18,590 bases of DNA from a virus. Taxonomy: Duplodnaviria > Heunggongvirae > Uroviricota > Caudoviricetes. The position numbers were made by a program, and so were the translations under genes. The notes beneath the pieces were generated by a model that was given only the letters and a program-made list of their open reading frames with translations, was not told the DNA's origin and made no database searches. Where the stretch lies: IMG/VR virus record IMGVR_UViG_2703718776_000018; one strand, given 5' to 3'. Each line of letters opens with the position of its first letter. Positions within the stretch are counted from its first letter, which is position 1. Shown here piece after piece: positions 1 through 18,590 of this stretch.

Positions 1-748
1 GGTAGTCCCTGCGGATATTTGCGATACGGGAATGCAGTCGCTGTATTTTGCGTTTCTGCTTCTGCCAGTTGTTGCTGAATTTGACCTTGCGGCTTAACTG
101 TCGCTGAAGTCTCGCCAGCTTCTTCTGGTTTTTCTGAAAACTATTTACAGGTTCAAAGACTGTGCCATCTGACAGCGTGGCGAGTTTAGCCACGCCAGCA
201 TCCAGTCCGACCATTGATGCTGAAGGGTGAACAGGAGTGGATACCTCTCTTTCTGTCTGAATACTGATGTACCACTTACCGCAGGACTGGCTGACAGTAA
301 CATTTTTCACAATACCCGTGACCTGACGGCTATTCCGGTAGCGCATCCAGCCAAGTTTCGGCAGAAAAATACGGCTGTTTTCCTGATCGAGCTTAACACC
401 CTGCGGGTAGCGGAATGCATCATTCTGTCCCCGCTTTTTGAATCGGGGAAAAGCTGCCCGATTCTGGAAGAAGTTTTTGTAAGCCCGCTCAAGGTCTTTC
501 AGTGACTGTTGCAATGGCTGTGAGGGAGAATCTTTAAGCCATTCGGTTTCAGTGTCTTTTTTCCACTCAACCAACCAGGAAGCCATTTTCGTGTAAGGGA
601 TGTATTTTTTACCGGCCTCATGATTCTCATTCTGAAGCGCCAGAGCACGGTTGAAAACGAAACGACAAGCTCCGGCAAAGCGCCTCATTTGACGCTCCTG
701 TTGACCATCTGGTTTTAACCGGAATTTGAATGACACCTGTTGTTTCAT
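1..748 (-). CDS. tnpB: IS200/IS605-family TnpB (OrfB) accessory protein, N-terminal 249 codons only; the 3' part lies beyond the window start
   Basis: Reverse-strand frame is open from the window edge to the ATG at 748-746 (own translation). It begins MKQQVSFKFRLKPDGQQERQMRRFAG, contains VGLDAGVAKLATLSDG (RuvC-I Asp box) and ends at the edge with QRLHSRIANIRRDY, both typical TnpB segments. It is absent from the ORF track because there is no stop codon inside the window. Confidence 0.85.
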   Translation of the reverse strand, partial: MKQQVSFKFRLKPDGQQERQMRRFAGACRFVFNRALALQNENHEAGKKYIPYTKMASWLVEWKKDTETEWLKDSPSQPLQQSLKDLERAYKNFFQNRAAFPRFKKRGQNDAFRYPQGVKLDQENSRIFLPKLGWMRYRNSRQVTGIVKNVTVSQSCGKWYISIQTEREVSTPVHPSASMVGLDAGVAKLATLSDGTVFEPVNSFQKNQKKLARLQRQLSRKVKFSNNWQKQKRKIQRLHSRIANIRRDY

Positions 749-847
749 GTCACTATTTTAAGCAAAAATAGCCGGGAGGAAAACTGTGCCTTATATCCCC
801 ACTATGAGGAGCGTAGGGGGCGGCACATTGGATAAGGCGTAACAGGG
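1..847 (-). mobile_element. Partial IS200/IS605-family element (tnpB-only, IS1341-like arrangement); inner boundary not resolved, somewhere in 749-847
   Basis: tnpB runs off the window edge and no tnpA lies between it and the next gene. An AT-rich hairpin (ctatttt / aaaatag, 752-770) abuts the tnpB start, as expected for a subterminal structure in this family. The boundary itself is inferred, not seen. Confidence 0.5.
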
Positions 848-3835
848 ATGAGCTTAAGCGATCAGGTGGTAATGGCCACCAGCATAGAAACGCTGATCGA
901 GCTGCTAAAGAACCTGCCCGATTATGGGCGGGTTTCGTATGTGGTGACAGCGAAGGGAGACGAGGTAAAAACAGCGTTTGATATCGTCGATGCCTCAGCT
1001 ATTTTGGTATCCAATACTCTGGATGGGAAAATTAATCCTGACTATCCCCAGGAACTTCAGCCGCGCGACCGGACCCGCGCATCCAGCCTTCTTCAGGTTA
1101 ACCAGATATCCAAAGATTTGCGGCCTGCTCAGCTTACCGATTCCGGATTATCCAGCCATGGCGCACCGATAATTGGTGAGGACAATGCAGTTGAGTCAGG
1201 TAATGGACGTACCATGGGGATCATTAAAGCCTATCAGGACGGTAATGCGGATCGGTATCGGGAGTACCTGATTGAACATGCGACCGAATTCGGCATACGT
1301 ACTGAAAAGGTTGAATCAATGACGGCTCCGGTACTGGTGCGCCGCCGGTTAACGAAGGTTGACCGCGTTCAGTTTGCCAAGGACTCAAATATTTCTGATC
1401 TTCAGGAAATGGCAGCCAGTGAAAAGGCTTTTGTTGATGCCGACAGCATAACACCGGCGATGATGGCGCTGTTTAATCCGTCAGAAAGCGGAGATCTGCT
1501 TAGCCGCAGTAATGACGCGTTTATTCGCGGATTTATGACGCAAGTTGGTGCCACACAGGCGGCTGGCCTTGTAACTGAAGATGGGCGACCAACACGGCAA
1601 CTTGTAGACCGTATACAAAACGCGATCTTTGCCAAGGCATATAAGGATGCGCGCCTGGTAAGGATGGTTGCAGAAGAACCTGATCCGGATATGCGTAATG
1701 TTCTGACGGCGCTTAATGCGGCAGCCAATGATTTTGTCCAGATGCAGGCTTTATCAGGAGAAGCGCACAAGCAGGCTGTGACAACTATTGTTGATGGCAT
1801 TGAGACAGCGGATAGCCTCGATAAAAAGGCGCTGGCGGCATTGAAAGATGCGGTAGACCTGGTAAGGCAATCGAAGGAGTCAGGCCAGCATATTACCGAT
1901 GTTATTGCTCAGGGGGATATGTTCAGCGAAATGGCCCCGGAAGTGAAAGCACTCGCGTTGTTCATCGTCGCGAATAACCGTAGCGCGAAGCGTATGGCCA
2001 CCGCCTTTAAGTTGATGGCTCAACGTATCAATGATGAGTTACAGCACCAGGGCCAGGCGCTGGGGGATATGTTTGGCGGCGGCGATGTGTCGTTACAGGA
2101 TATCCTTCGCCAGGTATCTCAGGAACTGGAAAACGAAGGTATGCAAGGGATATCCGGCGGTCTTTTCGAGTCAGCTTCCGGCGGTAGTTACAACGGTGTT
2201 GCTCCATATACCAGTTTGCTATTACATCGAGCATCCGGCATCAAAGACATTATTCATCTGATCAGGCTGCTTTCCCGTAAAGATCCCCAGGATGAACAGC
2301 TTGTACAAGTGCTTGCGCATTTTGTTCGAATGCCTGTTGCCGACGTGAAAAAATGGTGCCGATTATTCGGTATCAGCAATTCGTTACTTCGCGGCTTGTT
2401 AAATCACGCATCCTCCCTTGGGCGCGATGGCTTTGACGAGATAGCGCAGGCGATAAAAAACGGAGATATGCCACCAGCTATTGACTGGTTTTCCATTCGC
2501 CCAACCAGGGTGAAAGCATTCCTTAGCGCGGCGCATTCGGCATCACCATTGGCAGAAATGGTTCAGAGGTTGTCGCTCATATTCACAGACCATACCGCGT
2601 TGGGTGATCTGACTCTGGACGAGATGAAAGAAGCCTCCATTCAGTGGGCCGATCAACAAAATGAGGTTAACTCAGACTTCTTGCCAGCATTCAGGAAGGC
2701 CGTTAGTAAAGCGGATGATGCCCGTGGAATTCTGAAGGCATTTAAGGCATTGCAAAGTCGTGTTAATAAACATGTCGGTGATATCGATGGGGTAACGGCG
2801 GAAGGCCGGGATATCCTTAAAGAGCACGGCATAACGCCAGAGTTTATTGATGAGATCAGGACTGATATGCAGCGTGAGGTCGTATCGTCCCTGCAAATCG
2901 TAGCCAGAGCGTTGGCGGATGCTAATCCGAAGAGTGCGGCCATTGTTAACCGGGTTATTGGTGATATTGAAGCATCGGAGGGCATGGGGGCGCTGAAACT
3001 CTTCCTTTCGCGAGCGTTTAATCCTAACGGCAATATTCTCCCTGGCATTATTGGTGAGGCTAAAAAGTATGTCAGTGAAGAAGAACTTGAGCAGCTTGAC
3101 CAACTACTTAAGCGATTCTCATATAACCCGCAGACACGCTGGCAAATGAATCAGCGAAGTATGGGTTCGGTCCACGAGAAAGTGTTATCTGCCATGAACA
3201 GTGCGATCGCAAACTCATCCGTATCTGAAGAAAAAGCTCTTGAGTGGGCCGACTCTTTTATCACAGAAGAAGTGGAAGAAGCCCGCGCTGGACAGAATGG
3301 TGGGATAGACCTGCGCAAGGAACTTGCTGATATTTATCGCCTGACCGGCGGGAAAATATCGACCTTATCAAAGGTAGTTCACCACCAGGGAAGGGCATAT
3401 GCAAATCTAAATGGTGTTGTTGCTGTCAATTTGAACGATAAAAATGCAAGTGCACTGTGGCACGAGCTGGGTCATCATCTTGAGTACAGTAACCCTGGTT
3501 TGTTAGAGAAAGCCCGGTCATTCCTGAAGGCCAATGTTGAAGGGGATAAGCCATCTTTCGTTAATATCGGTGGGCGTGGCAAGCCTGAATGGTGCTTCAG
3601 ATCTCGATTGAGTAATATTTATATGGCGAAGGTATACCCGCCAGCCTCAGTAAGTAACACCGGGAAAATTCGGCAGAAATCACCGACTATTTCCAAAACG
3701 TCAGCAACGGAAGTATTCTCTATGGCTCTTCAGTTGTATCATGACAAAGAGGCCGCTGCCGCATCACTGATGAATGGTGACGGATTGCTGGAACTGTTAT
3801 TAGGTGTGGCAAAGGAGCTAAATAATGCAGATTAA
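848..3835 (+). CDS. Large 995-aa protein with an N-terminal ParB/Srx-like motif region and a C-terminal HExxH zincin-like motif; polyvalent-protein-like, possibly a virion-associated anti-defence protein (P1 Ddr-like?)
   Basis: Long uninterrupted ORF. Residues 63-73 read NPDYPQELQPR and residues ~116-127 read SGNGRTMGIIKA, with spacing reminiscent of the ParB N-terminal domain. HELGHH lies at residues 872-877 (nt 3461-3478). In-frame stop 4 codons upstream (833-835); the only SD-like sequence (TAAGG, 833-837) is about 10 nt from the ATG. Confidence 0.8.
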   Translation: MSLSDQVVMATSIETLIELLKNLPDYGRVSYVVTAKGDEVKTAFDIVDASAILVSNTLDGKINPDYPQELQPRDRTRASSLLQVNQISKDLRPAQLTDSGLSSHGAPIIGEDNAVESGNGRTMGIIKAYQDGNADRYREYLIEHATEFGIRTEKVESMTAPVLVRRRLTKVDRVQFAKDSNISDLQEMAASEKAFVDADSITPAMMALFNPSESGDLLSRSNDAFIRGFMTQVGATQAAGLVTEDGRPTRQLVDRIQNAIFAKAYKDARLVRMVAEEPDPDMRNVLTALNAAANDFVQMQALSGEAHKQAVTTIVDGIETADSLDKKALAALKDAVDLVRQSKESGQHITDVIAQGDMFSEMAPEVKALALFIVANNRSAKRMATAFKLMAQRINDELQHQGQALGDMFGGGDVSLQDILRQVSQELENEGMQGISGGLFESASGGSYNGVAPYTSLLLHRASGIKDIIHLIRLLSRKDPQDEQLVQVLAHFVRMPVADVKKWCRLFGISNSLLRGLLNHASSLGRDGFDEIAQAIKNGDMPPAIDWFSIRPTRVKAFLSAAHSASPLAEMVQRLSLIFTDHTALGDLTLDEMKEASIQWADQQNEVNSDFLPAFRKAVSKADDARGILKAFKALQSRVNKHVGDIDGVTAEGRDILKEHGITPEFIDEIRTDMQREVVSSLQIVARALADANPKSAAIVNRVIGDIEASEGMGALKLFLSRAFNPNGNILPGIIGEAKKYVSEEELEQLDQLLKRFSYNPQTRWQMNQRSMGSVHEKVLSAMNSAIANSSVSEEKALEWADSFITEEVEEARAGQNGGIDLRKELADIYRLTGGKISTLSKVVHHQGRAYANLNGVVAVNLNDKNASALWHELGHHLEYSNPGLLEKARSFLKANVEGDKPSFVNIGGRGKPEWCFRSRLSNIYMAKVYPPASVSNTGKIRQKSPTISKTSATEVFSMALQLYHDKEAAAASLMNGDGLLELLLGVAKELNNAD

Positions 3836-4145
3836 AATCGCAGCGCCATTAGGCGGAGATGCCATTATCGAATTTGATGATAATGAAGAAGTTTCCGGGC
3901 GTTTAAGCATTATCTCCGGTGACATTACCGAGGACATGATCGCTGAAGCCATAGCTGGGGCAAATCCCAATAGCTATATGGGATTCGTTAACACCCTTGA
4001 TGCTCCCGCAAGTGATGTTCTCCGAACGCTGCATCTTTACGCTGGCTGGTTTGTTGATTGGCCAGCAGTAGATGGTGGCGATGAGGATGATGATGACGAT
4101 GAAGAGGTTTTTAGTGATGAAACAGTAAACCAACTCTTGTATTGA
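3825..4145 (+). CDS. Small, very acidic 106-aa protein translationally coupled to the 995-aa gene
   Basis: Strong SD AAGGAG 7 nt upstream of the ATG at 3825. Overlaps the upstream stop by 11 nt. About 25 Asp/Glu against 4 basic residues, with a C-terminal run DGGDEDDDDDEEVFSDE. Confidence 0.7.
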   Translation: MQIKIAAPLGGDAIIEFDDNEEVSGRLSIISGDITEDMIAEAIAGANPNSYMGFVNTLDAPASDVLRTLHLYAGWFVDWPAVDGGDEDDDDDEEVFSDETVNQLLY

Positions 4146-4274
4146 CAGGAATTGGCATAGAATTGATTGTTCAAATTTCATCCATCACATAGACGACTTC
4201 ATGTTATTTGCCTGATAATTATGGCCTTAATAACCCATGTATATCTTTTGGGTTATATTCTTATCTTTAACAAG

Positions 4275-4320
4275 GTTATAAGAGCGACAATGATAAATTT
4301 ATCACTATCGCTCTTATAAC
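4275..4320. repeat. 46-bp near-perfect palindrome: 13-bp perfect arms (GTTATAAGAGCGA / TCGCTCTTATAAC) enclosing a 14-bp perfect inner palindrome TGATAAATTTATCA; possible bidirectional terminator or protein-binding site
   Basis: Read directly from the sequence; only 2 mismatched positions across 46 bp. Sits between the convergent 106-aa (+) and 95-aa (-) genes. Confidence 0.8.
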
Positions 4321-4348
4321 TCTTTGTTAGCTATAGCTTTAAACAAAT

Positions 4349-4636
4349 TTAGTTTTGAGGCAATGCAACAAAAGTCAGCTCTTGATCTTTGATTAATGCT
4401 TTTGTTTGTTTGGATGTAATTCCCACTTTAGTTTTTACATCATTGTGGAGCTTCTTATACGCTTTTATTTCATCTGCTGTATATCGGAAGCCATTTGCAC
4501 TGTTACTGGACAGTTGAAGTGCGATTACGTCATCACTGACACCCGCATCGCTTAGCTTAGCTATGCGGGTAATAGTGTGGCCTGCGCGAGTGTTTGGGGT
4601 GGATATTTTGTCTAAGAAATTGTTCAGTTTTTCCAT
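4349..4636 (-). CDS. Hypothetical 95-aa protein in an AT-rich cassette; possible HTH-like segment
   Basis: ATG at 4636 with SD GAGGT 8 nt upstream on the reverse strand. Bounded by the palindrome at 4275-4320 and the terminator at 4857-4884. Local GC is clearly lower than the flanks. The segment TITRIAKLSDAGVSDDVIALQL loosely resembles an Xre-type HTH. Confidence 0.65.
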   Translation of the reverse strand: MEKLNNFLDKISTPNTRAGHTITRIAKLSDAGVSDDVIALQLSSNSANGFRYTADEIKAYKKLHNDVKTKVGITSKQTKALIKDQELTFVALPQN

Positions 4637-4856
4637 TGTTTACAACCTCTTACTTGAGTTTATTGCCAGTAGAATTGCCACTATTCTTTTGCCTCAACGA
4701 ATCACAATGTACTGGAATAAGAAACTATGAGCAATACTTACGCTTTGCGAATACAGAAGATGAATAATCAACTTATTACTAAAATGTTAATAATATTATT
4801 CTGTTACATAGTGTTCGCTATAACAATCGGGAGTTGAATGCTAATTCAATAAATAA

Positions 4857-4884
4857 AGAACCCGCCAATTGGCGGGTTCTTTTT
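4857..4884 (-). terminator. Rho-independent terminator (10-bp stem AGAACCCGCC/GGCGGGTTCT, loop AATT) with U-rich tracts on both sides
   Basis: Perfect GC-rich hairpin directly after the stop of the 262-aa reverse-strand gene (stop 4883-4885); followed by TTTATTTATT on the reverse strand and TTTTT on the forward strand. Confidence 0.8.
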
Positions 4885-5671
4885 AATCACTTTCCACTTC
4901 TCCCGTGGTGTTTTCTTGCAGTTCTGTTAATGCAGCACGACATAGGTTCCGGGCATTGGCTATAGCCACACTTTTGACTTCATCCGTCATCGTGCAGGTA
5001 ATGTACTGATCTAGTTCTTCATCGCGGATGATGCTTTTGCCAATCAGAAACTGTATTTGCCAGAGCAGATCGGCATCCATAATCAGAATTTCTGCCGGGC
5101 CTTCAGGGCCAGCCGGGAAGGAAACATAAGACTGTTTGCCCAGGCCGACAACTCGACAACTTGCTTCAAGAATTGCGCGCTTGAGGTCTGACTTTATAAC
5201 GGAAACAGGTTGATTTTCACCAGTGATTACGCCGTTGACATGGAAAGGCATGTAGCTTGAAATTCGCTCTACTTTCCATACGCCAGCAAGCGATCCTTCA
5301 TGCAGCACAATGGGGGTAACCGCGAGTTTCATCTCACCATATAACTGCTGGCAGATAGCTGGATTGCTGAATACATCCAAAGGTTCACACTCAAACAGCG
5401 GCGCAATCTGCATGAGGTCCATCATGGTCATCCCTGGGGTACGAGCAGTAATGAATCTGCGCATACCAGTATCCATTGCGCTCCAGATTGCTACACCATG
5501 CTTTTTGCTCACTTCTTCAGTAAAGCCAAGGTGGCACATGATGGTTTTTTCGATAGCCAGATCAGAGATAGAAACCGTTTCGCCTGGCACTCCATCATTA
5601 TTGACGGTCACTTCGACACTCTGGCCATTACGTAGGCGGTATTGAATGGTTTTAGTATTTTGTGCTGTCAT
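4883..5671 (-). CDS. Hypothetical 262-aa protein downstream of ssb; function unknown
   Basis: Uninterrupted ORF with ATG at 5671, ending at a strong terminator. No motif recognisable by eye. Confidence 0.75.
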   Translation of the reverse strand: MTAQNTKTIQYRLRNGQSVEVTVNNDGVPGETVSISDLAIEKTIMCHLGFTEEVSKKHGVAIWSAMDTGMRRFITARTPGMTMMDLMQIAPLFECEPLDVFSNPAICQQLYGEMKLAVTPIVLHEGSLAGVWKVERISSYMPFHVNGVITGENQPVSVIKSDLKRAILEASCRVVGLGKQSYVSFPAGPEGPAEILIMDADLLWQIQFLIGKSIIRDEELDQYITCTMTDEVKSVAIANARNLCRAALTELQENTTGEVESD

Positions 5672-10172: not shown

Positions 10173-13100
10173 ATGAACAAGCTATCTATGGGGGTGTTTC
10201 GCTGTTCAAGTGTCAGCGAAATATTGAAATACATTAGGGCAATAACATCTCACCGAGCGCCGATTAAATACGGCGTGGAAAAGGTGGAAGGCAAAAGCTA
10301 TGACCGACTGCGCCGGGAGGCGAATCAGAAGGCGATAGATTTGCTTAATTCACTGGTGGACGGCGCGACACTGACAGATGAACAGCGCCAGATCCTGGCT
10401 GGGTACACCGGTGAAGGCGGCATTGGCGGGTCCGTCTCCGAATATTACACACCAAAGCCGATCGCTGAAGGTGTCTGGGAGATCATGAAGCTCTACGGCG
10501 CGGACGTAGGTAACACTCTGGAACCATCGGCGGGCACCGGCGTTTTTAATGAGACAAAACCGGTTGGTACGGTGATGACTGCGACTGAGATCAGCAGTGT
10601 TTCCGGTCGTATAAACCAGTTGTTACACCCGGAAGACAGCGTACAGATTTCCCCGTTCGAACAGCTGGCTATAAGCACACCTAACGATTCATTCGACCAT
10701 GTTGTGGGTAACGTTCCGTTCGGCGGTCGTGATAACACACGCAACATCGATAAGCCTTACGCAGAAGAAACGGACATGGGTTCTTACTTCATGCTCCGCA
10801 TGCTGGACAAGATAAAGCCAGGCGGATTCATGTGCGTGATTGTGCCGCCGTCCATTGTTTCAGGTTCAAACATGAAGCGGTTACGCCTGCGCCTATCACG
10901 GAAAGCAGAATTTCTTGGTGCCCACCGCTTGCCTACCGGTACTTTTGACGCAAACGGGACCAGTACGGTCGTAGATGTGGTGCTGATGCGCAAACATCCG
11001 GCAGAGATGGCTGAGAAAATCCCCCTGGTGGATGAAAGCACTCTTGAATCAGCAAATGTGCTTTGGCCAACGTTTATTTCTGGCAAGTGGTTTGAAAAGG
11101 ATGGCCGCCGGTTTGTTCATGGCACCCAAGAAAAGGGCTTCCGGGGGCGTATTGAGGTTCGTGCCGACGGTCAGATTGATAACCAGGCTCTTAAAGCGAA
11201 GCTGATTCATCGTTTCGAAAGCCGTATCGACTGGTCTTTGCTCGATATGGCTGAACCGTCACCGACCGCAGACGTTGTTGGTGAAGGGGAAATGCGCCTG
11301 ATTAATGGCGTATGGCAAAAATATGCTGGTGGTCGCTGGATTGAAGCTGATGCCGGGAAGGAACTTAAGATCGATGCTGCCAGTTATGGCGCGGATAGCT
11401 GGGAGGCTCTTCAGCGTAACCTGACTACAACAGAAGGCCGTCTCGGCATGACATTTACCCAGATGGCAAATGTCCGCGATAAGTACACCACATCAATCAG
11501 CGACGATATGGTGCAGCTGGTGGACTGGATTAACAGCCAGCCTGAAAAATACCGTGAACGCTTGTATCGCGGGGCGATGATTGGCCGGATGTTAATTGAA
11601 TATCAGGACATGAAGGCCGCCGGGCATAGTGCTGAACAAATCGAACAGCAGCGCCTTTCTCTGGTATCCCGTTTGCAGGCAGAGATTGACCGTTTTGGTA
11701 ACCCCGGTCGCGGTCCGATAGCGAAATTATCGGGGAGCGGTGCGCGCGCCTGGTTTGCTTTCCGTGGTGCAATTAAGCTGGATGGCACTATTTCTGACGA
11801 GCTGACAGGAAAACTGGTTACGCATGATTCCAGCGCCAGTTATGACTCCACCAGCTATCAGGACACCCTGCGTTATCTCTACAGTGATCTCACTCGCGAT
11901 CCAATCCAGCTCGATGATTTCCGCCTTGCGTTTACCGGCGAACTGCCAGCCAGTGATGATGAGTTGCTTAATTTATTGGCCAGCACCCCTGGCATTGCGG
12001 TTTCACCGTATGGCGGGATTGTTCCGTTCGCCCGCGCCACCAGCGGCGACATTAACGAGATAGTGGCTCCAAAACAGGAATTCCTCGCCACGCTCCCCGA
12101 CGGTCCAGTAAAGAACAACGTCCTTAATCAGCTGGCAGCGATCGAAGAGAAGCGCATCAAGACGCCAGCAGAGAATATCCGCTTTAAGCTCAATAGCCGT
12201 TGGTTCGACCGCTCCGTCATTCTGGAGTTTTTGCAGGAAAACGGCTATCCGGATCTGCGCTATGTGCAGTCAGTGCAGCTGGAAGGCGACGAAATGGTTT
12301 CTGACACCTATCACGGTGGTGATGGTCTGTTCGTCGGGCACCGATACGGTGTCGTCCAGCGCAAGGATAAAGAAACAGGCGAGATCCGCTACGAGTGGGA
12401 CCGTAAATCAGGTGAAAACGCGACCGGGTTCCCGGCACAACTGGAAAAGTATCTCAATGGTGCGCGTATCGGTGGCAAAGATAGCGCGACGGCGAACGGC
12501 TACCGCGAGCAGATGGCACTGCTTGAGGACCAGTTCAATAAGTGGATCAAGACGCACGATCGCTACGATGAGCTGGTTGCCAAATACAACGATGTGTTCA
12601 ATAGCAATATCCCGTATGAACACTCTGGCGATCCGCTTGGGTTGAAGGGATTAAGCGGTAAGCGCCAGCCATTTGATTACCAGAATAGCGAGGTGCGCCG
12701 ACTGTCCGAAGATGGGCGCGGCATCCTGGGCTTCGGCACCGGGCTGGGTAAAACCACGACCGCGCTGGCGCTTGAGGCGTTCAACTATGAGAACGGTCGC
12801 TCCACCCGTACTGCTTATGTAGTGCCTAAAGCAGTGCTGGAAAACTGGTATTACGAAGCAAAAGAGTTCCTGAGTGAAGAGGCATTCAGTAACTACCTGT
12901 TCGTCGGTCTTGATGTGCTGATGGATGGCGATCAGATTCGCCAGGTGCCGGTGCTCGATGAGAACGGTAAACCTGTTCTTGGTACTGATGGCACTCCAGT
13001 TATGCGCGATGCTCTTAAGCTGGCAGATGAAGCCACTATCACGGCGCGGATGAACGCGATCCCGCACTCAAATTACCGTGCAGTCGTGTTTACCAAAGAA

Positions 13101-16100
13101 CAATACGCCCGCATTCCGCTACGTGATGACACCGTAGATGAGCATGCACAAGACATGCTTTATGACTTCGTTGCCGCCGGGCGCGTAGCCAGCGCAATGG
13201 ATTCCGACTCCCATCGTAAAGAGGCGGCGCGTCGCTGGGTATTGTCGGAGTATTCAGATACCGGTACCGAAAAAGCAGAGAAGTATCCGTACTTTGAGGA
13301 TATGGGCTTCGATAGTGTGATCGCCGACGAAGGTCACAACTACCGCAATAGCTATAAAAATGGTCGCGAAGCGTCACAACTGGCCTATCTGCCCACCAGC
13401 GCGGTGGCGCAATCGGCGCGGGATATGGCAATCAAAAACGCGTACCTGATGAAAAAGAATGGCGGGCGCGGGCCGGTTCTCCTGACTGCAACGCCAGTCG
13501 TTAACACCCCGATCGATGCATACAACATGCTTTCTCATGTTCTGCCGAAGGAATACTGGCAGAAGATGGGGATCTACGGTCCTGATGACTTCGTTAAATT
13601 CTTCGGCAAGACCAGGCTGGAAACGGTACAGAAAATCAGCGGTGAAGTTGAAGAAAAAATGGCGCTGGTGGGCTTTGAAAACCTTGATGCGCTGCGCGGT
13701 ATATTCCATCGCTGGGTAACGCTTAAAACGGCGGAAGACGTTAAGGATACCGTGGAGATCCCGGAGCTGGACGAACACCAGCAGGATGCACCACTTACTG
13801 AAGAACAACTGGCGGCGTATGAAGAATTGCGTCAGCAGGCGGAAGCGGCGGCCAAAGCCAACAATGGCGTAACGACCTCGGTCAATGAAGACGGCGTGAT
13901 TGAGCACGAGAAAGCCCGTCCGATCTTCTCAATAATCAGGGATATGGACCGCGTATGTACTGACATGGACCTGTACTATCGCCGGATCACCTATCGTTTC
14001 CTGCCGGAGTACGCAGATGCGGTGCAGCAGCTGGCGGACAGTTTGCCTAAACAAGCCACCAGCGAAGACGACGACAGTGATGATTCAATCACGCAGCAAT
14101 CGCAATACTCCCTGATAGATAAGGGCGAGTTTATTCAGTTGCAGGTTCCGGAAGCGTTCGAGCAGGAAGTGAATAAGCGCCTGGCCAGGTTTGGCATTGA
14201 CGAACAGACCGTAACTCACCCCGTTACGCCCAAATACGCGAAGCTGATTGCCACGCTGAAGGAGTTTTTCCCGGAAGGTAAGCAAATCATCTTCACCGAT
14301 GAAAAAACGCAGCACCAGAAGCTCAAGCGCATTATCTGCAATGCTCTTAACCTTGAACCTTCAAAGGTGGGGATACTGAATGCTCAGACGGTTGCCGAGG
14401 CAGGTAAAACCGGTAAGAAACTGAAAGCGGTTAAACCGCCGAAAGAGCTACCGGATGAACCAACAGATGCACAGATAGCGAAATACAACGAGCAAATGGC
14501 TCTGTATGACGCCTATATCGCGCAGCAAAATGAAATGTCGCTGGGCGGGCTGGAAAAGATTGCTGCCGACTTCCAGGAGGGCCGGACTCCGATCATCATC
14601 TGCAACAAAAAGGCAGAGGTGGGTATCAACCTGCATCGAGGAACGACTGACATCCATCATCTGACGTTGCCATGGACACCAGCCAGTATCGCACAGCGTA
14701 ACGGTCGCGGTGCCCGAGTTGGTTCCAACCGTGCAAGCGTTCGCGTTCACTACTACTGCGGCAAGGGTTCTTTCGATGAATACCGACTGAAGACGCTGAA
14801 GCGTAAAGCAGGCTGGATCTCCGATATCCTCCGTTCAGATAAGTCAGAAATGGAGAACGCCGACGCCAACGATATGATCGAAATGCAGATGTATACCGCT
14901 AAGGATGATGGCGAACGTCTGGCAATGATGCAGGTTCAAATGGATAAGGCGAAAGCCGCGCAACGCGCTCGCCAGAAAGAACAGGCTACTATCGACCTTC
15001 AGAACTACATCAAGGCGCAGCACGCAGCTGGTGAGGATGTGGAGGTGCTTACCGCTGAATTAGAGCGAAGAAAAGCGGAACTCGAAAAGACCACCGCCGA
15101 CGTCGCCAAATTCAAACAGGCGGTAATGGCCAAAGCAGCTGATAACGCAGACTGGAAAGCCCGCTGGGGTAGCGTCCATCACACAGACCGTACGTTGTTA
15201 GCACAGTATCGCGCGTCGTTGAAAAGCGCCATTCAGCGCAAGGCTAATATCTCTCAAGCCATCTCCCGCTATGAGAAATTATTGAACCGTACTCAGAAGG
15301 CCGCGACGGATATCAAACGCCTTCGCCCGCTGGTGGAGGATGCAATAAATAAAGGCATTCTGGATGTTGATCCTGACCTGGTTAACCATGCGAGTGAGTT
15401 CCTTATTATCGGCGATCGCTCATGGCGTGTAGGCCAATACTACGATTGTGCCGGTGATATCGTTCGCATTAAGTCGCTGGACTTCGACAGCCAGCGCGCA
15501 GACGTGGAGATTATCTTTACCTTCAAAGGTACCAAATCGGGTAACTGGGATGTGAAGACGCTGGATAAACAGGTTGATGTAACTCCCGATGAAGATGCTG
15601 TTATGCAGAAAATCAGTGGTGGCGTCTCCATCGCCGGGATTAACGACATCATTTCCTGTGACGATTTCTACCGTTTCCAGCAGCGCGGCATGATCAAAAT
15701 CACTGACTCATACGGCGTTCAGACTACAGAGTCAGGCTATAGCATTGATTTTGTTGGTACCTATACGGACCCACTGAAGCATGCGGTTTACCCGGATCGC
15801 CGTGACGGCGCGCTGAAGTCGTCAATTGCAAAATGGGTGCTTGGTATGATGTCTGAAGGGAATAACCGCCAGGTCCGTTTGGCAGAAGTATTCCTGACTG
15901 AACTGTTTGGCTCCAATTATGGCGATGTAATCGCGTCATATGGAGATACGCTATCCCCTGAAGCAATTCAGGAGAAAATAGCGGATGCGATCGCCAGAAT
16001 GCCGGAGAAAACAAGCCAGGGGGCTACTCGTAACGGGGATTCTGAACTTGAGGTCACCAATGCCATTTTCGGTACCCATGAGTTCCGGGCGTCAGATTAT

Positions 16101-16940
16101 GAGATCACCACAGCACAGTTTGGCACCATTGGCATTTACAGCAATAAAGCCGAGATCAAGCAGGCAATGGACGCAGCAAGCGCGCGTATCGCAGCAGAAC
16201 GGGAAGCCAATCTGAATCATGCAGTCGCCGCACTGACTCAATCGTGGGTAACAGCAATCAGGGAGGCCGCCACCACAGGGAAAATCACACCTGCAATTGC
16301 GGATGTCGTAAACGACGGCTCTAAATTTATGGATGCCTATCAAATGGATGCGGTGAAGTTGCCATCAGCCTATGGTCAACTCAGCTATCGCATGACCTAC
16401 AACCTGGTATCAATGTTTTCCGACCTTGCCATCCTTGGGCTGGTGGATCTTAACGAGGTTACGCCGGAATTGCTCAGCATGCGCAAGAATCATGTGGAGA
16501 TATTGCAGAGAATTAACACGGTTCTTGCCGGGCGCACCGATGAAGAGAAACAGGCCGACGCTGATCGGATAAACCTGGCCCTTGGCAACATCACGGAGGA
16601 AGAAATTGCCGCCAGAAACGAGAAACAAGAAGAGTTATCATCAATACAGGGTGATGCCACCAGCATAGCTCAGTCTCTTGGTCTGAATTATCGCGTATCC
16701 ACCGCCGACCTGAAGATGATGTACGCACCAAAATTCGCCGCTGGCGAGGTATTTGGGCTTCAGGAAGCCTCAGGCATGAAAGGCGTTCTTTTCCGTGCGA
16801 AAGACGCAATCAAGGCGAAATTCGGCGCTCGCTGGCTGCCAGCGAAGGCGAAGAACAGCGATTTCCCGGGTAACTGGTGGATTATCGAGACAAAACACAA
16901 CGTGGCGGACGTTCTGGCCGTCATCCAACAATACGCATAA
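10173..16940 (+). CDS. darB: DarB-type antirestriction protein, 2255 aa: N6-adenine methyltransferase-like domain fused to an SF2 (SNF2/DExH-like) helicase, plus a long uncharacterised C-terminal region
   Basis: SD AAGGA 6 nt before the ATG. MTase motifs LEPSAGTGVF (residues 116-125) and GNVPFGG (179-185, nt 10707-10727). Helicase motifs GFGTGLGKTT (853-862, nt 12729-12758), DEGH (1052-1055, nt 13326-13337), LLTATPVVN, QRNGRGARVG. Length equals P1 DarB as I recall it. Confidence 0.9.
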   Translation: MNKLSMGVFRCSSVSEILKYIRAITSHRAPIKYGVEKVEGKSYDRLRREANQKAIDLLNSLVDGATLTDEQRQILAGYTGEGGIGGSVSEYYTPKPIAEGVWEIMKLYGADVGNTLEPSAGTGVFNETKPVGTVMTATEISSVSGRINQLLHPEDSVQISPFEQLAISTPNDSFDHVVGNVPFGGRDNTRNIDKPYAEETDMGSYFMLRMLDKIKPGGFMCVIVPPSIVSGSNMKRLRLRLSRKAEFLGAHRLPTGTFDANGTSTVVDVVLMRKHPAEMAEKIPLVDESTLESANVLWPTFISGKWFEKDGRRFVHGTQEKGFRGRIEVRADGQIDNQALKAKLIHRFESRIDWSLLDMAEPSPTADVVGEGEMRLINGVWQKYAGGRWIEADAGKELKIDAASYGADSWEALQRNLTTTEGRLGMTFTQMANVRDKYTTSISDDMVQLVDWINSQPEKYRERLYRGAMIGRMLIEYQDMKAAGHSAEQIEQQRLSLVSRLQAEIDRFGNPGRGPIAKLSGSGARAWFAFRGAIKLDGTISDELTGKLVTHDSSASYDSTSYQDTLRYLYSDLTRDPIQLDDFRLAFTGELPASDDELLNLLASTPGIAVSPYGGIVPFARATSGDINEIVAPKQEFLATLPDGPVKNNVLNQLAAIEEKRIKTPAENIRFKLNSRWFDRSVILEFLQENGYPDLRYVQSVQLEGDEMVSDTYHGGDGLFVGHRYGVVQRKDKETGEIRYEWDRKSGENATGFPAQLEKYLNGARIGGKDSATANGYREQMALLEDQFNKWIKTHDRYDELVAKYNDVFNSNIPYEHSGDPLGLKGLSGKRQPFDYQNSEVRRLSEDGRGILGFGTGLGKTTTALALEAFNYENGRSTRTAYVVPKAVLENWYYEAKEFLSEEAFSNYLFVGLDVLMDGDQIRQVPVLDENGKPVLGTDGTPVMRDALKLADEATITARMNAIPHSNYRAVVFTKEQYARIPLRDDTVDEHAQDMLYDFVAAGRVASAMDSDSHRKEAARRWVLSEYSDTGTEKAEKYPYFEDMGFDSVIADEGHNYRNSYKNGREASQLAYLPTSAVAQSARDMAIKNAYLMKKNGGRGPVLLTATPVVNTPIDAYNMLSHVLPKEYWQKMGIYGPDDFVKFFGKTRLETVQKISGEVEEKMALVGFENLDALRGIFHRWVTLKTAEDVKDTVEIPELDEHQQDAPLTEEQLAAYEELRQQAEAAAKANNGVTTSVNEDGVIEHEKARPIFSIIRDMDRVCTDMDLYYRRITYRFLPEYADAVQQLADSLPKQATSEDDDSDDSITQQSQYSLIDKGEFIQLQVPEAFEQEVNKRLARFGIDEQTVTHPVTPKYAKLIATLKEFFPEGKQIIFTDEKTQHQKLKRIICNALNLEPSKVGILNAQTVAEAGKTGKKLKAVKPPKELPDEPTDAQIAKYNEQMALYDAYIAQQNEMSLGGLEKIAADFQEGRTPIIICNKKAEVGINLHRGTTDIHHLTLPWTPASIAQRNGRGARVGSNRASVRVHYYCGKGSFDEYRLKTLKRKAGWISDILRSDKSEMENADANDMIEMQMYTAKDDGERLAMMQVQMDKAKAAQRARQKEQATIDLQNYIKAQHAAGEDVEVLTAELERRKAELEKTTADVAKFKQAVMAKAADNADWKARWGSVHHTDRTLLAQYRASLKSAIQRKANISQAISRYEKLLNRTQKAATDIKRLRPLVEDAINKGILDVDPDLVNHASEFLIIGDRSWRVGQYYDCAGDIVRIKSLDFDSQRADVEIIFTFKGTKSGNWDVKTLDKQVDVTPDEDAVMQKISGGVSIAGINDIISCDDFYRFQQRGMIKITDSYGVQTTESGYSIDFVGTYTDPLKHAVYPDRRDGALKSSIAKWVLGMMSEGNNRQVRLAEVFLTELFGSNYGDVIASYGDTLSPEAIQEKIADAIARMPEKTSQGATRNGDSELEVTNAIFGTHEFRASDYEITTAQFGTIGIYSNKAEIKQAMDAASARIAAEREANLNHAVAALTQSWVTAIREAATTGKITPAIADVVNDGSKFMDAYQMDAVKLPSAYGQLSYRMTYNLVSMFSDLAILGLVDLNEVTPELLSMRKNHVEILQRINTVLAGRTDEEKQADADRINLALGNITEEEIAARNEKQEELSSIQGDATSIAQSLGLNYRVSTADLKMMYAPKFAAGEVFGLQEASGMKGVLFRAKDAIKAKFGARWLPAKAKNSDFPGNWWIIETKHNVADVLAVIQQYA

Positions 16941-17710: not shown

Positions 17711-18301
17711 TTACACTATATCTTTTACTATAGAATTAGCATCCTCCAGTACGCCAATTTCTTCGATGCGTTTTTTTATTATTAATCGATTTGAAGCAAT
17801 GATTGTGGACCATCTTGTTTCCCAAGCTCTATAAGCATGCCACGAATAACCTAATCTCATTTCTTTGCTCATGTTGGACATTGAGTATTCAACGGCGTCT
17901 AAATATTCATTTTCATACTTAGTTCCACCAATTTCTAAAAGGCTGCCGAAATATATAAGCCATTTTGCAAGCTGCTCGTATTGCTCCCAAGCACCACTCT
18001 CTCTTGTTAAATCTCTTTTTTGTTTTATTATTCTCTTGAAAAAATCAACTACTTGTCCGTCATTCCAGTCGAAACCCTCAGATATAATCGAGGAGGTTAT
18101 TTGATAGAATGAATCTTCTAATCTAAGGTATTCATCCTTATAGTTGAAAGTGCCTGATAAAACTCTTTTTATACTTTGTCTGGCTCTTGCTATGACGCCT
18201 TCAATTAACATTATGTTAATGCTCAATCTCTTAAAGAAAGAGTCTATTTCGGTGTTGTCAATTACTCGTATTCCAAAACAATAAAAATAATAATCCTTCA
18301 T
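17711..18301 (-). CDS. Hypothetical 196-aa protein in an AT-rich island next to IS1; function unknown
   Basis: Uninterrupted ORF with ATG at 18301. Region 17700-18374 is markedly AT-rich compared with the darB/ulx side. No SD-like sequence stronger than AAGT upstream. Confidence 0.7.
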   Translation of the reverse strand: MKDYYFYCFGIRVIDNTEIDSFFKRLSINIMLIEGVIARARQSIKRVLSGTFNYKDEYLRLEDSFYQITSSIISEGFDWNDGQVVDFFKRIIKQKRDLTRESGAWEQYEQLAKWLIYFGSLLEIGGTKYENEYLDAVEYSMSNMSKEMRLGYSWHAYRAWETRWSTIIASNRLIIKKRIEEIGVLEDANSIVKDIV

Positions 18302-18374: not shown

Positions 18375-18590
18375 TAATCATTTATGGTAATGACTCCAAC
18401 TTATTGATAGAGTTTTATGTTCAGATAATGCCCGATGACTTTGTCATGCAGCTCCACCGATTTTGAGAACGACAGCGACTTCCGTCACAGCCGTGCCAGG
18501 TGCTGCCTCAGATTCAGGTTATGCCGCTCAATTCGCTGCGTATATCGCTTGCTGATTACGTGCAGCTTTCCCTTCAGGCGGGATTCATAC
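18375..18590 (-). mobile_element. IS1, partial: terminal inverted repeat and 3' portion of the transposase gene; the element continues beyond the window end
   Basis: From 18375 the forward strand reads GGTAATGACTCCAACTTATTGATAG.., the IS1 terminal repeat. The reverse complement through 18590 matches the IS1 3' region I recall (..CTGCATGACAAAGTCATCGGGCATTATCTGAACATAAAAC..). Confidence 0.9.
18390..18590 (-). CDS. insB: IS1 transposase InsB, C-terminal part (runs off the window end)
   Basis: Reverse-strand frame ends ..[17 protein letters not shown] with the stop at 18390-18392, the characteristic InsB C-terminus. Confidence 0.85.

Follow-up and report, generated by a model that had tools for sequence, protein, structure and literature searches.

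Among workhorse phages is bacteriophage P1, whose defence-against-restriction (Dar) proteins provide the classic case of proteins injected together with DNA against type I restriction. Six Dar proteins are found in the P1 head (PMC9024508), and they are co-ejected with the DNA, their target being type I restriction–modification (PMC12810830; PMC12707154). One of the six, DdrB, was detected in the virion with 39 unique peptides covering 59.5% of its sequence and is annotated as aiding the addition of DarB to the capsid (PMC9024508). Profile analysis has described DdrB as a polyvalent protein that combines a DdrB-ParB domain with a C-terminal metallopeptidase (MPTase) domain, and its processing to ~76 kDa has been reported (Iyer, Burroughs, Anand, de Souza & Aravind 2017; PMC5512222). 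On a non-restricting host, ddrB is dispensable for plating (PMC10695390). Here, we analyse an 18,590-nucleotide stretch of viral DNA (IMG/VR record IMGVR_UViG_2703718776_000018; hereafter the window, with positions counted from its first nucleotide) that carries ddrB and, overlapping its 3′ end, the small and very acidic gene hxr.

Two further groups of small acidic proteins invite comparison with Hxr. Ocr (gp0.3 of phage T7) and ArdA are small, very acidic proteins encoded by mobile elements for which type I restriction is a threat. VirE1, which serves VirE2, and the class I chaperones of type III secretion are acidic proteins of ~7–15 kDa that are encoded beside their cargo and are often translationally coupled to it; chaperones of this kind are not delivered themselves, and until export they prevent both activity and aggregation of the cargo. 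Our leading, though still tentative, reading is that Hxr is a dedicated partner, acting as chaperone or regulator, of the C-terminal half of DdrB. What is new here is offered as a lead for follow-up and not as a discovery: the refutation of the Xre label carried by Hxr, the modularity of DdrB, and the strict association of hxr with the HExxH-bearing half of its neighbour.

The ddrB–hxr pair in the late darA operon

Over its whole length the window is 98–99% identical to P1-family phages (P1, P7, SJ46, RCS47, vB_EcoM-Ro157c2YLVW and others), and in the region considered here the late darA (defence-against-restriction) operon of a P1-like phage-plasmid reaches its distal end. By the annotation of the P1 reference NC_005856, positions 848–3835 correspond to ddrB and 3825–4145 to hxr, with 98.3% nucleotide identity to P1 over 99% of the ddrB–hxr region. 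The P1 proteins, DdrB (P1_gp022, YP_006491.1) and Hxr (P1_gp021, YP_006490.1), are encoded in the same order and with the same 11-nt overlap as in the window, so the pair is already known. The original prediction, made from the sequence of the window, had allowed for an uncharacterised two-gene module; the pair is instead catalogued in P1, and a literature on DdrB exists. Its alternative suggestion that the two genes may equal ddrA and ddrB of P1 was correct for the large gene, which is ddrB, whereas the small gene is hxr and not ddrA.

In P1 the operon lydA–lydB–hdf–darA–ddrA–ddrB–hxr has the late promoter LPdar, with ddrB and hxr as its final two genes, and no internal promoter is annotated ahead of hxr in the P1 record. 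The gene order of the window, ddrB–hxr...ssb–lyz–pro–prt–darB–ulx–lxc, is the same as in P1. Inside the window the pair is followed by ssb, lyz, pro, prt, darB (10173–16940), ulx and lxc. The predicted setting next to dar and morphogenesis genes is thus found on the downstream side, with darB, ulx, prt and pro, whereas darA and ddrA lie outside the window because an IS200/IS605-family tnpB separates them from ddrB.

The large gene, ddrB (848–3835, plus strand), encodes 995 aa, is 98.3% identical in nucleotides to P1 ddrB and matches PHROG 2299 over its full length. Its landmarks lie where they had been predicted: QPR at aa 71, SGNGRTMGIIKA at aa 117 and HELGHH at aa 872 (nt 3461). By chance, HExxH would be expected 0.025 times in a protein with this composition and length. 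The small gene, hxr (3825–4145, plus strand), encodes 106 aa and belongs to PHROG 2292 (E = 7e-59). Its Shine–Dalgarno sequence, AAGGAG, is read at 3812–3817 (plus strand) within the 3′ end of ddrB, 7 nt ahead of the hxr ATG at 3825, and the ddrB stop codon TAA occupies 3833–3835, so that the predicted coupling geometry, including the overlap of 11 nt, can be read directly at 3812–3835. Hxr contains 25 acidic (Asp and Glu) and 3 basic (Lys and Arg) residues, giving a computed net charge of −22 and a pI of 4.05, in agreement with the predicted charge near −20 and an acidic tail. In the window the protein ends in ...DGGDEDDDDDEEVFSDETVNQLLY. It is 93% identical in amino acids to Hxr of P1, the last ~12 residues differing (DDDDDEEVFSDETVNQLLY in the window against DDDDDFGDHVDQIVY in P1), and the end variant of the window is also present in phage vB_EcoM-Ro157c2YLVW.

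DdrB modules and the linkage of hxr to the HExxH domain

The N-terminal part of DdrB matches the Pfam family PF18763 (ddrB-ParB), of which it is the namesake, over aa 36–167 (953–1348, plus strand), with E = 4.2e-39 and 133.9 bits against a cut-off of 27.6, and the match covers profile positions 2–120 of 121. DdrB is likewise the prototype of the DdrB-ParB domain, a DdrB-like member of the ParB/Srx superfamily. The boxes QPRDR (aa 71–75) and ESGNGR (aa 116–121) are invariant in eight homologues, down to 38% identity, as are, by alignment, Y129, Y137 and several Asp and Asn residues, candidates for the conserved Tyr of an extra helix and for the lineage-specific Asp or Asn at the end of strand 2 that mark this domain. 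The active-site arginine described for DdrB-like ParB domains (PMC5512222) is conserved in the window protein, the boxes Q71–R75 and E116–R121 both being invariant. The ParB-like N terminus proposed from the QPR box region is therefore confirmed, and it is already curated, in the Pfam family that bears the name of DdrB.

At the other end of the protein, the C-terminal domain (aa 766–995; 3143–3832, plus strand) contains the HELGH motif at 3461–3475. An alignment with seven homologues, whose C-domains are 23–46% identical to that of the window, leaves H872, E873, H876, H877, E879, E914, T954, E955 and S958 invariant; HELGH itself does not vary in homologues down to ~38% identity. Three of these residues are glutamates C-terminal to HExxH (E879, E914 and, in an S-T-E-V/I-F-S motif, E955) and are candidates for the third zinc ligand as judged from the sequence. 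In the zincin pattern as published, the HExxH helix is followed by one that supplies a glutamate ligand (Iyer et al. 2017; PMC5512222), and the invariant residues of the C-domain appear to fit it. A Pfam scan of the window's C-domain gave no match at E ≤ 10, so that it differs from other polyvalent-protein MPTases in matching no curated peptidase model, and sequence and profile searches of the Protein Data Bank (PDB) with DdrB and with the C-domain profile returned noise only. Scanning the HExxH regions of other polyvalent proteins and of stand-alone C-domain relatives against Pfam produced no usable bridge to a peptidase family, the middle region of DdrB had no family match, and NCBIfam and PADLOC searches found nothing for DdrB or Hxr. 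Of the predicted HELGHH metallopeptidase, the invariance of the motif and its MPTase description in the literature hold, whereas the curated-model and PDB searches gave no significant match. We assign the domain as a predicted zincin metallopeptidase because the HExxH motif is invariant and because published profile analysis reached this assignment (PMC5512222).

The broader expectation that the large protein is a polyvalent, packaged, anti-restriction protein was borne out and had already been published (PMC5512222; PMC9024508), the packaging itself being documented by the peptides recovered from the P1 head. The likeness to the described polyvalent proteins extends from the combination of DdrB-ParB and MPTase domains to the late-gene, head-packaged context, but the small acidic gene downstream of ddrB is not mentioned in that work (PMC5512222). 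With regard to the reported processing, the N-terminal 700 aa of DdrB have a calculated mass of 76.4 kDa and residues 301–995 one of 75.9 kDa; both ends thus calculate to ~76 kDa, and mass alone is therefore silent on which of them is retained.

The comparison of DdrB took in 88 sequences: those of the window and P1, together with 86 further loci retrieved through homology to DdrB. The N-terminal module of ~445 aa (aa 1–445; 848–2182, plus strand), which contains the ParB domain and a conserved region of ~270 aa, is 58–99% identical across lineages, with invariant columns spanning aa 27–441. The hypervariable middle (aa 446–765; 2183–3142, plus strand) is only 16–32% identical to that of non-P1 lineages whose N modules are 58–89% identical, and is nearly unalignable; the C-domain is intermediate, at 29–46% identity. 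In several P1-like plasmids, from Erwinia, Pantoea, Enterobacter and Buttiauxella, DdrB consists of the N module alone, measures 437–460 aa and ends exactly at the module boundary (the stand-alone short forms at loci L013–L016 and L019), and Vibrio homologues carry an InPase domain in place of the C half. Taken at the level of sequence, these comparisons show DdrB to be modular: the ParB-containing N module can stand alone, and the middle together with the HExxH domain forms an optional cassette.

The distribution of hxr follows this cassette. In all 18 loci with a P1-type C-domain (among them the window, P1, L002–L006, L008–L012, L020 and L089–L092), the 3′ end of ddrB, stop codon included, shares 8–17 nt with a small acidic gene, and in 17 of the 18 this gene is an identified member of the Hxr family. 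Thirteen of these 17 match the Hxr profile (L002 with E = 3e-36), and the other four, at L089–L092, were found by direct look-up of Hxr-family proteins. The remaining small gene, at L020 (Rosenbergiella), encodes an acidic protein (net charge −14) that misses the Hxr profile at E ≤ 1e-3. Conversely, no Hxr gene was found in ~60 loci that have a DdrB-N homologue without the C-domain and a visible downstream region, a set that includes the P1-like plasmids with the short DdrB of 437–460 aa and the Vibrio ParB-plus-InPase forms. The gene located 3′ of hxr varies by locus, and may be a porin, an Arc-like gene, a toxin–antitoxin pair, ssb or a CHAP-domain gene. Moreover, the identity of Hxr follows that of the C-domain and not that of the N module; in L002, for example, the N module is 89% identical, the middle 29%, the C-domain 46% and Hxr 45%. 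From the co-occurrence and the parallel divergence it follows that the variable half of ddrB and hxr behave as one cassette, and the earlier supposition that the two genes act together is strongly supported by these comparative data.

A P1-type HExxH domain is also carried by a separate protein of 620–670 aa in a Pseudomonadota metagenome-assembled genome (MAG) (L022, 7976–9988), Sphaerotilus natans (L034, 7424–9403) and a Desulfobacteraceae MAG (L067, 5191–7050), with the motif WHE[ML][AG]H[HL]LE...TEV[FI]SMG. In each case its gene adjoins that of a giant polyvalent protein with a DdrB-N module, so that the two halves of P1 DdrB occur as neighbouring genes. The N terminus of the protein encoded after the HExxH protein in these three loci resembled the N-terminal hairpin of Hxr by eye, but unfiltered hmmsearch and hhalign gave this no support (E ~0.3, probability 0.2%) and the link was dropped.

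Hxr as a candidate partner of DdrB, and competing readings

Hxr belongs, by sequence, to a tiny orphan family confined to P1-like plasmid prophages. A HMMER scan that exhaustively covered 1.84 billion representative proteins gave 19 matches, of which three are spurious and come from repeat proteins, and a profile search added a few more members. The spurious matches, of 539–954 aa, are not relatives; those inspected (P0141 and P0146) are FG-GAP/VCBS-type repeat proteins matching 'GDITEDMIAEAI'. Among 50,697 phage records Hxr occurs in 20, namely 19 P1-family phages and one Cronobacter phage. All members share the motifs G-D, P-N-S, G-x-V-N, V-L-R-S/T, G-W and W-P. The family profile found no relative in the PDB, and neither by sequence nor by fold does Hxr resemble any structure that has been solved or predicted for viral proteins.

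The structure predicted by AlphaFold2 (AF2) from an alignment of 13 sequences divides Hxr into a core of aa 1–82 (3825–4070), with a predicted local distance difference test score (pLDDT) of ~80–85, and a tail of aa 83–106 (4071–4142) with pLDDT <50; a single-sequence AlphaFold model (pLDDT 43) was set aside. In the model, strands at residues 2–6, 12–16, 28–32 and 76–78 and helices at 36–44 and 62–71 give the core a predicted small α/β fold of β-β-β-α-α-β order, and the acidic tail is predicted to be disordered. The tail contributes −12 of the net charge of −22 and the core −10 in the window, compared with −2 to −7 for the core in other lineages. Every Hxr member has a polyacidic tail, of 21–26 aa and net charge −5 to −14, whose composition is kept while its sequence varies; it is therefore the charge of the tail that selection acts on.

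Two Hxr proteins, P0007 (L089, 4501–5055) and P0148, of 184 and 187 aa, are tandem duplications of the whole Hxr unit, in which a short acidic linker belongs to the first copy and the full poly-Asp tail to the second; the duplicated hxr of P0007 retains its overlap with the 3′ end of ddrB, which encodes 997 aa there. The poly-Asp run in the tail (4086–4103 in the window) varies between 5 and 8 consecutive Asp residues among near-identical P1-like sequences (P0001–P0004 and P0012), and in P0005 Hxr is frameshifted within it. This length variation fits slippage in a GAT/GAC repeat.

We tentatively propose the following account of how the pair might work. The part of DdrB is known from the literature: it is a late product that enters the head along with the other Dar proteins and leaves it together with the DNA, and it contributes to protection against type I restriction, in part by helping DarB into the capsid. 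The C-terminal HExxH domain, as a predicted zincin metallopeptidase, would process the DdrB protein. Hxr, translationally coupled to the end of ddrB, would be made in the producing cell at a roughly constant ratio to DdrB and would bind the variable or the peptidase half of DdrB, either chaperoning it or restraining its peptidase or DNA-binding activity. This hold on DdrB would last until DdrB has been processed and packaged. The small protein is inherited, lost and diversified together with the middle-plus-C-terminal half of DdrB. Hxr shares its size, pI, gene position and translational coupling with VirE1 and the class I type III secretion chaperones, an analogy that is functional only, as there is no homology between them and delivery here is by a phage capsid rather than by a secretion system. 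The hypothesis is a concrete one for dissecting Dar assembly or for engineering P1 capsids for protein delivery. The binding and the chaperone role are what we infer from gene arrangement and co-inheritance, and we hold them with even or slightly less than even confidence.

Several points weigh against the partnership. As hxr adjoins the 3′ end of ddrB, linkage and shared ancestry alone could give both the co-inheritance and the parallel divergence, and recombination break-points in the variable middle could yield the same pattern because the two genes are physically adjacent. Nor are the 18 loci 18 independent events, since all of them are P1-like plasmids of Enterobacterales. The metallopeptidase fold of the C-domain is unconfirmed by any curated Pfam model; Zincin_1 (E = 0.008) and Reprolysin_5 (E = 0.044) were reached below threshold, each in one of the seven homologues. 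Knock-down of hxr by CRISPR interference (CRISPRi) caused no plating defect (PMC10695390), and every dar gene was likewise without a CRISPRi plating defect on a non-restricting host (PMC10695390). Finally, Hxr is absent from the P1 virion proteome, but that absence is weak evidence. Hxr of P1 has one Lys and two Arg, and hence tryptic peptides of 4, 22, 41 and 35 residues, so that a single convenient peptide stands against the two-peptide cut-off of the published analysis (PMC9024508).

A wider version of the partnership is less likely than not. Hxr might found a new family of acidic partners dedicated to capsid-delivered polyvalent effectors, a phage counterpart of secretion chaperones such as VirE1, which would bind the fast-evolving, peptidase-bearing half of DdrB and control its processing, solubility or head loading; or it might be a new kind of mimic of DNA or protein, based on its tail, that rides with DdrB. 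In either case the Xre label, 20 years old in the records of P1-like phages and plasmids, is wrong.

It is improbable, in our estimate, that Hxr is itself a minor head protein, packaged and ejected, whose tail keeps DdrB or other basic Dar proteins off the capsid DNA or aids their exit. The late operon that hxr shares with six packaged proteins agrees with such a role, the strict link to DdrB fits it equally well, and tryptic liquid chromatography–tandem mass spectrometry (LC-MS/MS) would probably miss the protein. Nevertheless, Hxr is not reported in the P1 virion analyses consulted, and it has no recognisable capsid-targeting signal, such signals being defined for DarB only.

The original prediction had pointed to antirestriction by DNA mimicry, in which Hxr would act like Ocr or ArdA and titrate type I or other restriction or defence proteins alongside DdrB. 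Its net charge of −22 over 106 aa and pI of 4.05, the retention of negative charge across the family, the location in an antirestriction operon and a fast divergence, as expected of arms-race genes, are all in keeping with this, and since DNA mimics have many unrelated folds, the absence of fold matches is compatible with it. However, the likeness of Hxr to Ocr and ArdA lies in small size and very high negative charge density, and there is no similarity in sequence or fold. Hxr has no Pfam match at E ≤ 1, the Ocr and ArdA models included, and its charge is concentrated in the tail predicted to be disordered (−12 of −22, pLDDT <50) and so seems not to be laid out on a rigid DNA-shaped surface; the charge of the core varies from −2 to −10 among members. 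Ocr is made early, whereas hxr is the last gene of the late LPdar operon, and a soluble late inhibitor would be useless for incoming DNA unless packaged; Hxr is not among the 27 virion proteins detected, itself weak evidence. Furthermore, the action of Dar is confined to cis, to DNA packaged in the same virion (PMC12707154), which ill suits a freely diffusing mimic, and strict dependence on the C-domain of one neighbouring gene is unexpected of a stand-alone inhibitor. We therefore give mimicry little chance.

Two remaining readings can be dismissed briefly. Hxr as an immunity protein for the ParB module was rejected because DdrB proteins consisting of the ParB module alone exist without any Hxr. 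The database label of an Xre-like helix-turn-helix (HTH) repressor derives solely from the original 2004 annotation of P1, based on 28% identity over ~58 aa to Xre of Bacillus subtilis and copied since into many other records, and is effectively refuted as a propagated misannotation: Hxr matches no HTH_3, HTH_31 or other HTH family of Pfam at E ≤ 1 and nothing in NCBIfam, its profile has no PDB relative though Xre-family structures are abundant, its predicted β-β-β-α-α-β core (AF2) is not a five-helix bundle, its pI and net charge are unsuited to DNA binding, and its gene closes a late structural operon.

Sequence around the pair

Within ddrB, the antisense reading frame iddB (1402–1800, minus strand; 132 aa), annotated in P1 as 'unknown protein function', is intact in the window. 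On the 5′ side of the pair, the 5′ part of an insQ-like tnpB of the IS200/IS605 family, encoding 249 aa, occupies 2–748 on the minus strand (Pfam HTH_OrfB_IS605, E = 2e-16; OrfB_IS605, E = 9e-24). The element ends near 831 and P1 homology restarts at 832, which places the insertion in the spacer between ddrA and ddrB; SJ46 has the same element between an intact ddrA and ddrB. In carrying this element the window resembles SJ46 and vB_EcoM-813R1 and differs from P1. The 12-bp spacer just after the ddrA stop codon contains two unrelated tnpB-only IS200/IS605 elements in two P1-like lineages. The first is that of the window (1–831), SJ46 and vB_EcoM-813R1, and the second lies at 2703–4000 of L002, a plasmid of Salmonella with a DdrB of 60% identity; the TnpB proteins of the two are only 33% identical. 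On this evidence the spacer may be a hotspot that was hit independently, by elements antisense to the operon that are possibly polar on ddrB–hxr.

Downstream, 3′ of hxr, a near-perfect, loop-less hairpin of 23+23 nt (inverted repeat at 4275–4320, 91% complementary) may mark the end of the operon. The stretch 4146–4880 differs from P1, as the isaB and IS1 that P1 has 3′ of hxr are missing. An orphan open reading frame (ORF) of 95 aa at 4349–4636 (minus strand) has no Pfam or PHROG match, a strong terminator-like hairpin lies at 4855–4882, and an IsaA-family gene (phrog_2326) follows at 4883–5671 (minus strand). At the far end of the window, P1 homology ends at ~17660, where P1 has the type III mod and res genes. 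An ORF at 17711–18301 (minus strand; 196 aa) matches only positions 240–434 of the 434-aa phrog_7567 and looks truncated, perhaps by an adjacent IS1, of which we take positions 18388–18590 (GGTAATGACTCCAACTTATTGATAG...), running to the window edge, to be the left end.

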